The position numbers were made by a program, and so were the translations under genes. Below the pieces are notes generated by a model. It was not told the origin of the DNA. It made no database searches and worked only from the letters and a program-made list of their open reading frames with translations. 64,000 nucleotides of DNA from Escherichia phage 92CQ. The stretch lies in sequence record PV682554.1. One strand, given 5' to 3'. Below, in pieces: positions 39,730 to 48,495 of this stretch (position 1 is the stretch's first letter; every line of letters starts with the position of its first letter).

Positions 39730-39783
39730 GCGCCCTGGTTGGCGCGGTAGAAAGATAATAGCCGTTTCCTTTATAGATAGCAA
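39730..39783 (-). promoter_or_regulatory. leftward sigma70-like promoter (TTGCTA, 17 nt, TATTAT) plus 5-prime leader hairpin (GCGCC-loop-GGCGC)
   Basis: Read on minus strand; hairpin at 39730-39745 precedes RBS of gene 39441-39707. Confidence 0.5.
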
Positions 39784-39816
39784 GCAAAAAAGAAATGAAA
39801 AAAGATTAAAAAAATG

Positions 39817-39845
39817 GTTGACGTTACCAGGGTAATAACATATTA
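39817..39845 (+). promoter_or_regulatory. rightward sigma70-like promoter (TTGACG, 17 nt, TATTAT)
   Basis: Divergent from the leftward promoter about 35 bp away. Confidence 0.45.
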
Positions 39846-39973
39846 TTCATCTTGTCGAGGGGGGCAAGGCACAACGACAATAAATAAAAGGCGGGTGCAA
39901 TGCAGGACGGGCAAAGGTGAGGATCTCCACAATCCACCGTCACAATAACATTACTTATAAAAGGTTGATAACG

Positions 39974-40069
39974 ATGATCAAGAAAGAAAACAGCTTGACG
40001 GTTGGAACGATTAACGCTATCATTCTAGCCGTTCCATTTTGGATTGTAGTAGCGGTTGTTATTTTCTAA
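39974..40069 (+). CDS. hydrophobic micro-protein (31 aa), not in ORF track
   Basis: MIKKENSLTVGTINAIILAVPFWIVVAVVIF; weak RBS; downstream of promoter 39817-39845. Confidence 0.3.
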   Translation: MIKKENSLTVGTINAIILAVPFWIVVAVVIF

Positions 40070-40078
40070 AAAATATTC

Positions 40079-40134
40079 TTGACAACGTTTTTTAATCTGA
40101 TAAGATGTATCACATAGGGCGGCAATAGTGCCGC
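40079..40134 (+). promoter_or_regulatory. PeSL-like cassette: TTGACA, 16 nt, TAAGAT, then leader hairpin GCGGCA-ATAG-TGCCGC
   Basis: Consensus -35; ATAGGGCGG block 7-8 nt after -10; precedes ATG 40159. Confidence 0.6.
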
Positions 40135-40158
40135 TCATAATAGAAGAGAGAAATAATC

Positions 40159-40431
40159 ATGGCATCATATAGCGCATCAATGATTGTAACGGGTATCACT
40201 GGTAAACCTATGCGCGGTGGCGGATCTTTCGCTAACATCAATATTGATGGGCGTTTATCCCTGGACGCAGCGATCACAGTGGCACGGGAAACGTTTAAAA
40301 AAGAATGTAATTTCAATAAACAAGATTATCTCGGCTTCGTTATTGAAAAAACCGCGCGCTTTGTTGATTATAAAAGCCCGAAAATGATCGACACTACACT
40401 AAAAGCGCAAGATGTAGCATTTTTGCTTTAA
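40159..40431 (+). CDS. hypothetical early protein
   Basis: 90 aa ORF downstream of PeSL cassette. Confidence 0.6.
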   Translation: MASYSASMIVTGITGKPMRGGGSFANINIDGRLSLDAAITVARETFKKECNFNKQDYLGFVIEKTARFVDYKSPKMIDTTLKAQDVAFLL

Positions 40432-40434
40432 GGC

Positions 40435-40494
40435 TTGACACTGAAAAATAATTTAGTAATATATACCACATAGGGCGGGAAATGGTTTCCCGCC
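40435..40494 (+). promoter_or_regulatory. PeSL-like cassette: TTGACA, 16-17 nt, TAATAT, hairpin GGCGGGAAA-TGG-TTTCCCGCC
   Basis: 9-bp stem hairpin followed by leader atcaaagaaaggg and ATG 40517. Confidence 0.65.
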
Positions 40495-40516
40495 AAATCA
40501 AAGAAAGGGTAACACA

Positions 40517-40879
40517 ATGAGCAAGCAAATCAATACTATCATGTTAAACCTGGTATCTTTCCGCGATGACGTGAAAAATCTTTCGCGTGATGCAGTGGAT
40601 GCACGGATCGAAAGCTATCGCACACAGATCGCGACATTACCGTTAAAACGTGATCAACATGCCGCTAATATGATGCTTGATGCTATGATTAAAAAGATGA
40701 TTCAATGTGATCTTACCCTGGCTTATGAATATGCTGGCGATCTTTTTGTAACGTATAATAAACCCGTTCCAGGTATGAGCACCACGGAAGAATTGCATGC
40801 CTTAAATCTGCGACAAGATGCATGGGATAACATGCGCCGTGTTATGGTATGGGTAGAAAGCGGTAAAATTTACGAATAA
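40517..40879 (+). CDS. hypothetical early protein
   Basis: 120 aa ORF downstream of PeSL cassette. Confidence 0.6.
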   Translation: MSKQINTIMLNLVSFRDDVKNLSRDAVDARIESYRTQIATLPLKRDQHAANMMLDAMIKKMIQCDLTLAYEYAGDLFVTYNKPVPGMSTTEELHALNLRQDAWDNMRRVMVWVESGKIYE

Positions 40880-40885
40880 AAACGG

Positions 40886-40939
40886 TTGACATTGCACGAA
40901 AACCTGATAAGCTATCTTAAAGCGGGAATTGTTCCCGCT
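40886..40939 (+). promoter_or_regulatory. PeSL-like cassette: TTGACA, weak -10, hairpin AGCGGGAA-TTG-TTCCCGCT
   Basis: Consensus -35 at 40886-40891; 8-bp stem hairpin. Confidence 0.5.
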
Positions 40940-40957
40940 TACATAGGATAAAACTTT

Positions 40958-41104
40958 ATGAAACAATATGTAATGAGTATCCACACCAAAAACGGCGCTA
41001 CTGTTACGACTCCGGCACGGTTTGCACTTGTAAACCGTTGCAAGAGACTAAAACGAGAGTTAAAAAATAACCGTGCAACGGGCTTTAAACGCTGGGGAGG
41101 ATAA
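40958..41104 (+). CDS. small basic protein (49 aa), not in ORF track
   Basis: MKQYVMSIHTKNGATVTTPARFALVNRCKRLKRELKNNRATGFKRWGG; its last codons form the RBS ggagga for the next gene. Confidence 0.4.
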   Translation: MKQYVMSIHTKNGATVTTPARFALVNRCKRLKRELKNNRATGFKRWGG

Positions 41105-41106
41105 TC

Positions 41107-46662: not shown

Positions 46663-46685
46663 TCATAACAGAAGAGAAACAAATC

Positions 46686-46856
46686 ATGATCCCGACTATG
46701 TTTTACGTATCGCGCAAAGGTCACAATATTTTTTGGTCTGAAGATTTAAATGAAGCCATGACGTTTGCCCGTGATCGTGTTGCTATCGGTGGCGTTAATA
46801 TCACTGTAACCGATGAAAATGGCATTGAATACTATAACGGCGACGATGAAGAGTAA
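46686..46856 (+). CDS. small early protein (56 aa)
   Basis: Start set at ATG 46686 (MIPTMFYVSRKG...); track start 46656 is a TTG inside the hairpin. Confidence 0.5.
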   Translation: MIPTMFYVSRKGHNIFWSEDLNEAMTFARDRVAIGGVNITVTDENGIEYYNGDDEE

Positions 46857-46904
46857 TTAATGAGGCGGGGGGAGTATTCCCCGCCGTTAATAAAGAGATA
46901 AATC

Positions 46905-47174
46905 ATGAAAATAACATTAGATGACGCGATCAAGGCTATCGAATCCGGTTACACCCTGGTAAAAGATGATAAGGCTAAAACCGTGCACCACGTTAACAAG
47001 AAAACAGGCGAAAGCATGATCACATATAAAGCAGCCTACTTTCTCCAATCAGTAGCAGATCCGCGCGTACAACGCCAGGTTACAGCGGCTATTGCTAAAA
47101 AATTATGTGCTTTACAGGGCACAAGTTTTAACGAGATCGCCCCGTGTTTTGACTGGTCGAGCTTGAAAAAATAG
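46905..47174 (+). CDS. hypothetical early protein
   Basis: 89 aa ORF preceded by GC hairpin (about 46864-46885) and RBS aaagag. Confidence 0.55.
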   Translation: MKITLDDAIKAIESGYTLVKDDKAKTVHHVNKKTGESMITYKAAYFLQSVADPRVQRQVTAAIAKKLCALQGTSFNEIAPCFDWSSLKK

Positions 47175-47175
47175 T

Positions 47176-47230
47176 TTGACAAAATTATAAATCGGGTAGA
47201 ATGTATTTCGTAGGGCGGCAATAGTGCCGC
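47176..47230 (+). promoter_or_regulatory. orphan PeSL-like cassette (TTGACA...TAGAAT, hairpin GCGGCA-ATAG-TGCCGC) with no ORF before the next cassette
   Basis: Followed about 15 bp later by a second cassette; 17-bp direct repeat AAAAAATAGTTTGACAA occurs twice. Confidence 0.55.
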
Positions 47231-47245
47231 TCACGAAAAAATAGT

Positions 47246-47307
47246 TTGACAATATGCGGTTATCTGGTAAAGTGTACGACATAGGGCGGGGCAATAAGGC
47301 AACGCCC
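47246..47307 (+). promoter_or_regulatory. PeSL-like cassette: TTGACA, 16 nt, TAAAGT, degenerate hairpin
   Basis: Precedes micro-protein gene at 47326. Confidence 0.5.
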
Positions 47308-47325
47308 ACTAATGAGGGTAAAATC

Positions 47326-47430
47326 ATGTTAGAGAAAATTTTCACGGTTGTAGTAGTGGGCCTGGCGTTATCGGTTGGAGTGATTGCAACTATGGCTAAC
47401 ATGATCCTATCTTCCCACGGTATTGGATAA
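47326..47430 (+). CDS. hydrophobic micro-protein (34 aa), not in ORF track
   Basis: MLEKIFTVVVVGLALSVGVIATMANMILSSHGIG; RBS gagggtaaaa. Confidence 0.4.
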   Translation: MLEKIFTVVVVGLALSVGVIATMANMILSSHGIG

Positions 47431-47440
47431 GGTGAATCAA

Positions 47441-47656
47441 ATGATCACGAATAAGACAGGTAAAACAGAATTTTTACGCGGCTTGCAAATAGGTAAACCT
47501 GAAATCTGGCATTGCACTAAAACACCACGTGACGAAATGAAAGATTTCACCGCTACTTTACAACGTGTTAAAATATCTATCACACAGAAAAAAGCCTTGT
47601 TAGTAGTAGAAAACGAGATCCCGCAAACTATTATTATTGTCGAGCGTACAGCATGA
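47441..47656 (+). CDS. hypothetical early protein
   Basis: Start set at ATG 47441 with RBS aaggtga; track start 47423 is TTG. Confidence 0.55.
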   Translation: MITNKTGKTEFLRGLQIGKPEIWHCTKTPRDEMKDFTATLQRVKISITQKKALLVVENEIPQTIIIVERTA

Positions 47657-48003
47657 AAACAGAAATCATTATTGAAATCATCAACGGTTATAAAGAAGCC
47701 TTTATTTTTGCTGAATCCGCCAGGGATCATGAAGGTAATTTTATTGATAACTTAGACGATTATGATTTTTCAGATCAAGCCCATCAGCGGATCATTCATG
47801 ACGTAGCGGCTTATTGTGATGCCAATGATGCCGCTATCTCTGAGGCAATGGACGGGCAACAGCACCAGATGGGAATGATTTCATTTTACCGAAGTCACGG
47901 CGTAGGCTTTTGGGATCGCCTGAAAATACACACTAAACGCCAACGCTTACAATGCGCTAAATTATGCCATCGGTGCATGCTTACATTGGTGAAGATAATT
48001 TGA
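47653..48003 (+). CDS. hypothetical early protein
   Basis: 116 aa ORF; start overlaps upstream stop (ATGA). Confidence 0.55.
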   Translation: MKTEIIIEIINGYKEAFIFAESARDHEGNFIDNLDDYDFSDQAHQRIIHDVAAYCDANDAAISEAMDGQQHQMGMISFYRSHGVGFWDRLKIHTKRQRLQCAKLCHRCMLTLVKII

Positions 48004-48023
48004 TTTATATTGAATAAAAAGTA

Positions 48024-48082
48024 TTGACACCGATCCCCAATATGGTACTATTTACCACGTAGGCGGGAAATGGTTTCCCGCC
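48024..48082 (+). promoter_or_regulatory. PeSL-like cassette: TTGACA, 16-17 nt, TACTAT, hairpin GGCGGGAAA-TGG-TTTCCCGCC
   Basis: Fourth copy of this hairpin type. Confidence 0.6.
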
Positions 48083-48105
48083 AGGTAATCAAAAAGGTAA
48101 ATACT

Positions 48106-48495
48106 ATGCGCAACCTGGTTTCTGTTTCTAACGTTGAAAAATTTCAATCTTTACAGGGTATCGTTAACAACGTAGCGCCTTTTTTAGTCAACGGCTTGAT
48201 TGCAAAGATGAAAAATAAACATCATGCAGCATGGTCTGCTTACTGCTTTGATAATGATGAAAAAGCGGCTGAAATGATGTTAAATATGCTGTTAGACAGT
48301 GTAGAATCATCTTTACCGGAAAACATCGCAGAAGAGATCACCTATCGTTATAATATGGCGATCACTTACCAGGAAGTGGCGCAATTTAATATGATGGATG
48401 ATGACGAACAACAGGATCAGGAAATGTTTTGGGAGTATGCTGATCGTCAATCGGCTTTTGATGAAAAGTTAGCGATGTATTATAACGAATATTAA
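48106..48495 (+). CDS. hypothetical acidic early protein
   Basis: Start set at MRNLVSV; track start 48070 is a GTG in the leader; acidic stretch MMDDDEQQDQEMFWEY. Confidence 0.55.
   Translation: MRNLVSVSNVEKFQSLQGIVNNVAPFLVNGLIAKMKNKHHAAWSAYCFDNDEKAAEMMLNMLLDSVESSLPENIAEEITYRYNMAITYQEVAQFNMMDDDEQQDQEMFWEYADRQSAFDEKLAMYYNEY

Follow-up and report, generated by a model that had tools for sequence, protein, structure and literature searches.

The presumed early region of a phi92-like Escherichia coli phage was analysed in a stretch of 64,000 nucleotides (nt) from Escherichia phage 92CQ (record PV682554.1), which is called the window below. This region is a row of small genes, most of which share one cassette design, whose parts are a strong host-type promoter, a GC hairpin at the predicted transcript start, and a leader of fixed length. 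As judged from sequence comparisons, related phages, including members of another subfamily, have exchanged genes at these shared cassettes. The anatomy of the cassette, its fixed geometry, the conservation and covariation of the structure, the absence of terminator features, and the position of exchange junctions in cassettes are the solid parts of this picture. The cassette genes would be expressed early, and the hairpin would stabilise the messenger RNA (mRNA); gene exchange may be selected for or may be only a by-product.

The region at positions 39730-48110 has matches in 285 phage records, 37 of which cover at least 80% of it. The best-matching records show 95-99% identity and come from the Escherichia phages Antha, Paula, JohannJBalmer, ESCO32, alia, phi92 and others, i.e. 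from genomes of approximately 145-150 kilobases (kb) that belong to Justusliebigvirus (Stephanstirmvirinae). A first-pass annotation of the window had compared the region with those of T4-type phages; as these closest genomes show, the phage is not T4-type. The number of small open reading frames (ORFs) in the cassette region is 26-27, close to the roughly 25 small proteins reported there. Their genes are labelled 'hypothetical protein' in every matching record, and none of the database records inspected for the region contains a promoter annotation. Altogether, 23 ORFs were searched in PHROGs, Pfam or both. Of the 20 compared with PHROGs, 19 match families of unknown function, and Pfam gave a single match above threshold, DUF7249 in g9. 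Nothing was matched in three PDB sequence searches with ORFs of the region. A role of the small proteins in host takeover or anti-defence is an assumption.

Promoter, hairpin and leader

On the plus strand, 22 promoters of the sigma-70 type, each agreeing with the consensus hexamers in 10 or more of 12 positions, extend from 39818 to 48879, the last unit ending at 48953. The -35 hexamer is a perfect TTGACA in 19 of them, the spacers comprise 15-17 nt, and the -10 hexamers read TAnnnT. An A-rich, UP-like tract lies upstream of most. In 13 of the 22 cases, a strong GC hairpin follows 6-13 nt after the -10 hexamer; these hairpins start at 40117, 40474, 40920, 42758, 43087, 43404, 43705, 43968, 46276, 46642, 47213, 47284 and 48062. 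An additional strong hairpin (46864) stands without a promoter. Weak or decayed hairpins are seen at three places (41970, 45880 and approximately 42305), and six promoters lack a hairpin (39818, 39995, 42005, 44763, 45228 and 48879). Repeated cassettes, as claimed in the first-pass annotation, therefore do occur in this region, all on the plus strand and far above chance. Its estimate of about 20 units is adequate for the promoters and too high for the hairpins. A repeat search of the sequence independently recovered identical cassette families.

The conserved block after the -10 hexamer, ATAGGGCGG, is found exactly six times and in four close variants. Two hairpin types recur as described earlier: GGCGGGAAATGGTTTCCCGCC exists in four copies, and GGGCGGCAATAGTGCCGC(C/T)C in three copies plus one variant. 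The supposedly conserved leader atcaaagaaagg is exact in two cassettes only and does not stand as a sequence; it does stand as a purine-rich leader with AAGAGA or AAAGG. Folding each leader had been proposed as a check. Between predicted start and ATG, the 14 leaders with strong hairpins yielded -13.6 to -18.7 kcal/mol, corresponding to z-scores of -3.0 to -5.3 against dinucleotide shuffles. The hairpin extends from nt 1-5 to approximately nt 25, and the ribosome-binding region is open.

A search for further copies, which had likewise been proposed, was performed as a hairpin scan of both strands of the entire window and found 52 strong hairpins on the plus strand. With a promoter filter (at most four hexamer mismatches and a near-consensus -35), 12 strong hairpins are located 6-13 nt after a promoter, every one of them inside 40117-48082. 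The thirteenth hairpin (47284) is absent from this listing because its stem is interrupted. Most of the other strong hairpins of the window are terminators of the classical kind, flanked by A and T. An Rfam 15 search of positions 38000-50000 at relaxed thresholds gave two sub-threshold chance matches, neither of which is on a cassette hairpin.

The geometry of the cassette was determined from the window and 15 related loci (L001-L015). This sample contains 312 promoters. Behind 54% of them lies a fold of -12 kcal/mol or stronger, a level that 6% of the 42-mers drawn at random from this DNA attain. In 114 unique cassettes, 10-11 nt most often separate the -10 hexamer from the first paired base (standard deviation 1.7 nt), and the stem begins 6-14 nt after the -10 hexamer in 113 of them. 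Between the last paired base and the ATG, a distance of 21-22 nt is the most common one, and 105 of the 113 gaps measured are 17-25 nt long. The order of the elements is -10 hexamer, approximately 10 nt, stem-loop, purine-rich leader of approximately 21 nt, and ATG. E. coli RNA polymerase normally starts 7-8 nt past the -10 hexamer and prefers a purine after a pyrimidine. From the promoter geometry, transcription is predicted to start at the A of 'cAC-ATAGGGCGG'. This would leave 0-4 unpaired 5' nt in most cassettes, with a maximum of 6 in cassette 42717. The earlier proposal that the hairpin occupies the extreme 5' end of the transcript agrees with this predicted position. The Shine-Dalgarno sequence of hairpin cassettes is weak and typically AAGAGA; its mean energy is -4.1 kcal/mol, compared to -5.8 for genes behind hairpin-less promoters and -6.7 for genes without any cassette, all from small samples. 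The homology of the cassettes extends into the coding starts (g2, g7-g11 and others), with ATGGC(T/A) in six genes and ATGAA(A/G) in nine. GCU and AAA are second codons that favour translation in E. coli.

A MAFFT alignment of the cassettes placed the 3' arms out of register and was replaced by a hand-padded structural alignment of 44 distinct variants. Here, 85.6% of the cells are paired, compared to 35-59% with slid partners. The GCGG/CCGC core is invariant in the 44 variants, and three inner pairs covary (GC 25, CG 13, UA 1, UG 1; AU 34, GC 7, GU 3; AU 26, GC 4, GU 2). The sense RNA of the unique variants folds more stably than the antisense RNA in 56 cases and less stably in 19; this bias is mostly due to internal G-U pairs, for example in GGGCGG...CCGCTC. 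In PD114, the top of one hairpin is reverse-complemented (CAATAGTG to CACTATTG), and another whole hairpin is the exact reverse complement of the ESCO13 version. The flips are located at 7327 and 10565 of locus L012 (PD114), to be compared with 43404 of the window and 12656 of locus L005. Flips of this kind are the mark of template switching or inversion at palindromes, and what is conserved in them is the pairing. The cassette element is a structure, probably one at the RNA level.

In the window, no U-tail follows the cassette hairpins: the plus-strand tails are A-rich and contain 0-3 T in 8 nt, and the minus strand has no T-run directly after the stem, except for a chance extension at 43964-43992. 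Unlike the cassette hairpins, the real terminators at 44524-44548, 48507-48535 and 49353-49371 carry T-tracts.

The promoterless hairpin at 46864-46885 is kept in most Justusliebigvirus loci examined; in ESCO13 and ZCKP1 it has a different stem sequence. Further promoterless hairpins exist in ESCO13, PD06, ZCKP1 and Mangalyan, mostly 18-24 nt from the ATG. Since these hairpins are conserved, a unit consisting of the hairpin, approximately 20 nt and the ATG has value also inside a longer RNA. Its function is therefore put below as protection and insulation of cistron starts, beyond the capping of primary transcripts.

Gene exchange at cassettes

Phapecoctavirus (ESCO13, ZCKP1), WPEC1 and the rV5-like Vequintavirus Mangalyan have an identical design, often with identical sequence blocks. 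In an exact-pattern scan of IMG/VR, contigs with multiple matches were mostly 97-153 kb long and resembled Stephanstirmvirinae and Vequintavirinae groups; the number of single matches was near the chance level estimated for 17 specified bases.

Chained alignments of the window with 11 Justusliebigvirus genomes were used to analyse exchange and revealed approximately 12 distinct insertion, deletion or replacement events. When the endpoints of insertions and deletions (indels) were manually overlaid on the cassette coordinates, approximately 20 of 25 fell inside cassettes. For example, VEcB has lost g2, and the promoter of cassette 40079 is fused to the hairpin and leader of cassette 40435; the crossover of this hybrid lies in the shared CACATAGGGCGG. 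ESCO32 possesses an extra gene of 264 nt that is flanked on both sides by copies of the 70-nt cassette at 42703-42772, and the single cassette of the window at this place looks like a recombinant of the two. In KKE7M, the slot at 43384-43682 is occupied by another gene, which has a promoter and a hairpin of its own, and both junctions of this replacement are within promoter spacers. The KKE7M module is 94-97% identical to Vequintavirus genomes and is present in well over 100 other records, those listed being 135-141 kb long where complete. One of the exchange events is the import of a module from Vequintavirus.

The g7 module (42076-42345) is absent from phi92, PD06, PD114 and arall, and its junctions coincide with the start 'ATGGCTA' that the genes share. 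Its identity to Mangalyan is 94%, compared to 71-85% for the shared genes next to it. Four or more states exist at site 47234: the window contains a gene-less 'orphan' cassette, which arose from a deletion, and a gene of approximately 205 nt is located at this site in six of the relatives examined. At site 48879, relatives carry an insert of 296-319 nt flanked by cassette repeats. The gene content of close relatives, whose comparison had been recommended earlier, hence differs at cassettes (VEcB, ESCO32, KKE7M, g7). The modular gene shuffling postulated in the first-pass annotation is supported by gains, losses and replacements among related genomes with ends inside cassettes.

The variants of the cassette are not evenly distributed. 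Of the 12 Justusliebigvirus loci examined, 10 contain 2-4 copies of the form GGCA-ATAG-TGCC, and GGCA-ATGG-TGCC is represented by 7 copies in the two Phapecoctavirus loci. This suggests that variants are homogenised within lineages by gene conversion among copies, because independent substitution is unlikely to yield such a lineage-wise pattern of loops.

Proposed mechanism, rival explanations and known systems

The balance tips slightly towards the following reading of the early-gene cassette: the hairpin caps the predicted 5' end and protects or insulates the mRNA, and the repeats are a recombination linker. Each unit would be a self-contained early-gene expression cassette transcribed by the host sigma-70 RNA polymerase. 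It would comprise an A-rich UP-like tract, a perfect -35 hexamer, a TAnnnT -10 hexamer, and a predicted start at the A given above. The RNA hairpin, which has 8-10 bp and is GC-rich, would start 0-6 nt from this position, and the leader of approximately 21 nt after it would be unstructured and purine-rich, with a weak Shine-Dalgarno sequence before the ATG. Almost no single-stranded 5' end would be left, which may shield the RNA from 5'-end-dependent decay (RppH, RNase E). The edge of the footprint of an initiating ribosome is estimated at roughly -20, and the hairpin would end approximately where this footprint begins. In read-through RNAs and in promoterless cistrons, the hairpin would obstruct nucleases at the start of the cistron and insulate the ribosome-binding site. 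The cassette of approximately 80 nt is repeated approximately 20 times and is common to Justusliebigvirus, Phapecoctavirus and Vequintavirus; it would therefore also be a homologous linker. Recombination between cassettes would delete, insert or replace whole genes, each of which would keep working expression signals. It is established that stem-loops at the 5' terminus stabilise E. coli mRNAs and that RppH requires unpaired 5' nt (Emory, Bouvet and Belasco 1992; Bouvet and Belasco 1992; cited in the review PMC3997798).

Several observations weigh against this reading. In most cassettes 3-4 unpaired 5' nt are predicted, a number at the upper limit of what is reported to allow protection, and cassette 42717 may have as many as 6. 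Six promoters of the region lack a hairpin altogether, and the conserved promoterless hairpins (46864 and others) show a role that is independent of a primary 5' end. The GCGG/CCGC core and the 'CAYRTAG' block are conserved beyond structural need; this could be due to sequence-specific recognition, or merely to recent common ancestry and gene conversion. Moreover, the alignment used to assess covariation was made by a stem-finder and is biased towards pairing. With respect to exchange, counts of endpoints alone prove no mechanism, because viable indels end between genes and the intergenic space is nearly all cassette. The excess of endpoints per junction is not significant, and the deletion at 47234 looks illegitimate rather than homologous. 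It is the hybrid cassettes that provide the real evidence for cassette-mediated exchange.

A bolder version, which we consider rather improbable, regards the cassette as a shared 'plug-and-play' standard of promoter, hairpin and leader that is kept by selection across the Stephanstirmvirinae and Vequintavirinae (coliphages of approximately 140-150 kb) and functions like integron gene cassettes. Any early gene could then be swapped between co-infecting phages and be expressed at once, and the hairpin or palindrome would perhaps be a preferred point of crossover or nuclease entry. The excess of CCWGG over CTWGG and the excess of GATC confined to the region (see below) would be a record of frequent heteroduplex formation.

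Among the rival explanations, the strongest one assumes that the hairpin acts mainly within read-through RNAs, as an intercistronic barrier to 3' exonucleases, similar to repetitive extragenic palindromic (REP) elements, or to RNase E scanning. Only two terminators exist for approximately 20 promoters, so nested read-through transcripts are to be expected, and across genera promoterless hairpins with differing stems have been retained directly behind stop codons, in most cases with 18-24 nt to the following ATG. A barrier that is independent of the start does not need the tight spacing of -10 hexamer and stem, and we regard this explanation, which overlaps with the proposed mechanism and does not exclude it, as not very likely. 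It is unlikely that the hairpin is a terminator or attenuator that stops or damps transcription from upstream cassettes and so isolates each gene, as proposed for promoter early stem-loops (PeSLs). One PeSL stem-loop alone cut lacZ read-through as much as rrnB T1 (PMC2839356), and the record of Paula annotates several of the cassette hairpins as terminators, on the minus strand. However, a U-rich tail is missing on either strand, in contrast to the T-tracts of the terminators at 44524, 48507 and 49353. A terminator would not need fixed distances to the -10 hexamer and the ATG either, and since each hairpin is downstream of its own promoter, it would also stop the transcript of its own gene. 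Equally unlikely is a recombination element at the DNA level, i.e. a palindrome that, as a cruciform or hairpin, promotes breakage or a switch of template, maybe with a phage nuclease, and that affects expression only incidentally. The exchange junctions in cassettes, the inverted hairpin tops and whole hairpins of PD114 relative to the window and ESCO13, and the homogenised variants would fit such an element, and crossovers of PeSLs have been mapped inside the loop (PMC2839356). The fixed distances, the sense-strand bias and the open ribosome-binding site suggest a constraint on the transcript instead, and the crossovers are not specific for the hairpin: they are spread over the -35 hexamer and spacer, the -10 hexamer, the predicted start block, and ATGGCTA.

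Two further explanations involve a binding protein. A dimeric repressor of phage or host might bind the palindrome at +3 to +25 as a DNA operator and shut all early promoters together. The position just past the predicted start is typical of operators, and the outer half-sites GCGG and CCGC do not vary among the 44 variants. Yet 54 variants show half-site spacings of 8, 9, 11, 12 or 13 nt, a variation at odds with a single dimeric binder, and the inner positions covary such that pairing is kept even though the sequences differ between cassettes. As G-U pairs favour the sense RNA fold, promoterless copies exist and whole hairpins are flipped, an operator is very unlikely. We assign the lowest probability of all to a site for a phage RNA-binding protein that times early expression, be it an antiterminator of the boxB/N type, a translational repressor, or a site-specific RNase. 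The primary sequence (AUAGGGCGG and the GCGG/CCGC core) is indeed conserved beyond the need for pairing, but the loops are diverse (UGG, AUAG, AUGG, UAG, UAC, CAC, AAUAGC) and even reverse-complemented, the stem length is variable, and neither an Rfam match nor a candidate protein was found.

Some other candidates were rejected. The cassette stems are too short for RNase III sites. The motif 'CACATAGGG' resembles 'CACTATAGGG' of T7-like phage-polymerase promoters, which were dismissed because every copy stands behind a canonical sigma-70 promoter; a related Certrevirus was reported to lack an RNA polymerase of its own (PMC7344957). Integron attC sites and clustered regularly interspaced short palindromic repeats were rejected on the basis of their anatomy.

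The first-pass annotation had called the cassettes PeSL-like. The likeness to PeSLs (Arbiol et al. 2010, PMC2839356; Comeau et al. 2014, PMC4122927) comprises repeated cassettes of approximately 60-100 bp. Each cassette unites a strong early promoter of the sigma-70 type, which is preceded by an AT-rich tract, with a GC stem-loop and with the ribosome-binding site for the gene behind it. In both systems the cassettes are clustered in a variable region of small orphan genes, junctions of indels and replacements lie in cassettes, and chimeric cassettes remain. However, PeSLs belong to T4-like phages, whereas the cassette described here is found in Stephanstirmvirinae and Vequintavirinae. The published stem-loops mostly lie between the -35 and -10 hexamers or over the -10 hexamer (PMC2839356; PMC4122927), i.e. 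within the promoter motif, whereas the stem-loop of the cassette is located 10-11 nt downstream of the -10 hexamer, in the predicted 5' untranslated region. In the same publications they are described as terminators or attenuators of upstream transcription that are effective, and not as 5' stabilisers of mRNA, a function that had been ascribed to them in the first-pass annotation. The hairpins of the window lack terminator features, and the sequences are unrelated. The PeSL-like reading is consequently half right: the shuffling, the promoter class and the region of orphan genes agree, and the position and presumed function of the stem differ. The cassette is a PeSL-like regulatory and recombination cassette in another phage lineage, with the stem-loop moved into the leader.

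With the 5' stabilisers of ompA and papA (reviewed in PMC3997798), the cassette shares a stable hairpin within a few nt of the 5' end (predicted in the phage), a short leader and a ribosome-binding site. Structure rather than sequence is conserved in both; the phage hairpins display three covarying pairs and flips, but their GCGG/CCGC core is invariant. In contrast, ompA and papA are single cellular genes proven by experiment, whereas the phage element is a repeated mobile design in front of approximately 14 genes, with predicted 5' ends and additional promoterless copies. The early promoters of Vequintavirinae (rV5, PMC3606486; Certrevirus CB7 and CR3, PMC7344957) likewise consist of an A-rich tract, TTGACA and a TATAAT-like -10 hexamer, and are clustered among short hypothetical ORFs taken as early. 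These two papers mention neither a hairpin after the promoter nor a fixed leader nor exchange bounded by cassettes. REP elements, bacterial interspersed mosaic elements and the intercistronic RNase III sites of T7 are similar in being repeated intergenic hairpins that shape mRNA stability. REP elements, however, are located 3' of genes and are unrelated to promoters, and the T7 sites are long RNase III substrates, whereas the cassette stems have only 8-10 bp. In the literature on phi92, phAPEC8 and rV5-type phages, no description of the cassette was found; the original genome papers of phi92 and PVP-SE1 were outside this search.

If the hairpins do cap 5' ends, the cassette would be a compact natural design for expressing many small and possibly toxic early genes from very strong promoters with a controlled mRNA lifetime, and a possible part for synthetic biology. 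The comparison indicates that the PeSL principle is not confined to T4-like phages and that linkers for the exchange of whole genes can cross subfamilies. It bears on the question of how therapeutic phi92-like and rV5-like phages gain genes for host takeover or anti-defence. For the annotation of new genomes, the cassette is an easy marker of variable early genes, and it is of use for existing records, several of which call the hairpins terminators or start genes inside them.

Individual cassettes and flanking sequences

All of the following units are on the plus strand. Cassette 1 (40079-40158) has its -35 hexamer at 40079-84, its -10 hexamer at 40101-06, and the hairpin GGGCGGCA-ATAG-TGCCGCTC at 40117-40136 (-14.4 kcal/mol, z -3.8), followed by the ATG at 40159. 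In cassette 2 (40435-40516), promoter and hairpin (40474-40494, GGCGGGAAA-TGG-TTTCCCGCC) precede the ATG at 40517, and in cassette 3 (40886-40957) promoter and hairpin (40920-40940, AAGCGGGAA-TTG-TTCCCGCTT) precede the ATG at 40958. The next unit, 41927-42004, is gene-less. It possesses a promoter and a weak hairpin at 41970-41982 (GGGGC-AAC-GCCCC; -8.6 kcal/mol, z -1.6), and the next promoter stands directly after it. This hairpin-less promoter (42005-42069) matches the consensus in 12 of 12 hexamer positions and drives g7 (42070-42249). The promoter unit at 42269-42344, with the ATG at 42345, has a decayed hairpin (GGGAATACTCC); at the matching position, ESCO13 has retained GGGAA-TAC-TTCCC.

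The cassette at 42717-42798 has a consensus promoter, a hairpin at 42754-42777 with its core at 42758-42774, and the ATG at 42799. The cassette at 43048-43129 belongs to repeat family D1; its -35 hexamer and spacer are near-identical to those of cassette 1, and promoter and hairpin (43087-43107) lead to the ATG at 43130. The left junction of the KKE7M replacement is located in the cassette at 43366-43444 (promoter; hairpin 43404-43423, GGGCGGCA-ATAG-TGCCGCCC; ATG 43445). Its right junction is in the cassette at 43667-43751 (hairpin 43705-43728, AGGCGGTGG-AATAGC-CCACCGCCT; ATG 43752), which combines a weaker promoter (TTGTAA, 16 nt, TAAACT) with a fold of -18.7 kcal/mol (z -5.3). After one more cassette with promoter and hairpin (43930-44008; hairpin 43968-43988; ATG 44009), this first block is closed by a bidirectional intrinsic terminator at 44524-44548, which is composed of an A-tract, a GGGCGC stem and a T-tract.

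The sub-block at 44550-45830 is characterised by stronger Shine-Dalgarno sites and by ORFs with membrane segments or signal peptides. Two hairpin-less promoters, 44763 and 45228, lie within 44763-45278. They are followed by a promoter with a weak 4-bp hairpin (unit 45840-45910; hairpin 45880-45891, -6.0 kcal/mol, z -1.7; ATG 45911) and by two cassettes with promoter and hairpin (46235-46316, hairpin 46276-46296, ATG 46317; 46603-46685, hairpin 46642-46664, ATG 46686). The promoterless hairpin at 46864-46885 (unit 46864-46904) is located 7 nt after the upstream stop codon and 19 nt before the ATG at 46905. The gene-less orphan cassette at 47176-47235 consists of a promoter with a 15-nt spacer and a hairpin at 47213-47232. 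The cassette at 47246-47325 has a promoter and the interrupted hairpin (47284-47307, GGGCG...CGCCC; -16.8 kcal/mol, z -4.3) before the ATG at 47326.

Promoter, hairpin (48062-48082) and the ATG at 48106 make up the last cassette with a strong hairpin (48024-48105). Several public records start this gene, as well as its homologues in loci L003, L004 and L006, at 48070, i.e. with an ATG within the hairpin loop and a product of 141 amino acids. A start at 48106, with the ATG 23 nt past the hairpin and a product of 129 amino acids, fits the cassette geometry better, and the start at 48070 is probably wrong. The second cassette block is closed by an intrinsic terminator at 48507-48535. A related promoter at 48879-48953 retains the 'cacGTAGGGC' block at the predicted start and has no hairpin because the 3' arm is missing.

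Two genes of the region deserve a comment. Compared to JohannJBalmer, g26 (47653-48003) contains several indels of 1-5 nt in its 3' third and a frameshifted tail (116 versus 128 amino acids), and the arall genome has a deletion of 147 nt within g26. The g26 of the window is either a decaying allele or the product of a series of sequencing errors. A homologue of g11 with 71 amino acids is called 'phosphoribosylpyrophosphate synthetase' in some records, a name without Pfam support. A scan of the window for transfer RNAs gave no hit.

The sites GATC and CCWGG are strongly enriched solely in the cassette-rich region at 39800-48500, which contains 77 GATC (30 expected) and 40 CCWGG (7.8 expected). 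In its coding sequences, the counts are 74 for GATC and 36 for CCWGG, compared to 41.9 +/- 4.3 and 8.1 +/- 2.4 in synonymous-codon shuffles. Within 40-50 kb, CCWGG outnumbers CTWGG plus CCWAG by 43 to 5; elsewhere in the window the counts are 68 to 123. Vsr very-short-patch repair would be expected to leave such an excess of CCWGG combined with a depletion of CTWGG and CCWAG. The same pattern of Dam and Dcm sites is seen in early regions of Phapecoctavirus and Vequintavirus (L005 at 4-16 kb, L009 at 1-12 kb, L015, L008 and L002) and fades outside of them. Candidate causes are frequent heteroduplex repair, a shut-off linked to methylation or SeqA, or methyltransferases of the phage itself.

The non-coding flanks of the early region contain two clusters (39069-39133 and 49588-50744) of the Fur-box-like motif GAKAATCATTMTC, with 13 matches compared to 0.48 expected. 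Around 50533-50549 (AATGATAATCATTATC), 16 consecutive bases match the E. coli Fur consensus. The clusters are possible operators of an iron response, or else sites for a regulator of the phage or an origin. Downstream of the early region, at 49380-50900, approximately 1.5 kb of AT-rich DNA have no obvious coding sequence and are full of short direct repeats ('tatctaacc', 'taatcatttcataca') and palindromes; this may be an origin, a packaging site or a terminal-repeat region. Upstream, a near-consensus promoter on the minus strand (39438-39410) faces a GC-rich stretch at 39185-39440. A structured non-coding RNA on the minus strand at 39185-39405 was rejected, because the fold is no better than that of shuffled sequences (z = +0.9). 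The GC-rich stretch itself is conserved in all Justusliebigvirus loci examined and is 86% identical in ESCO13.

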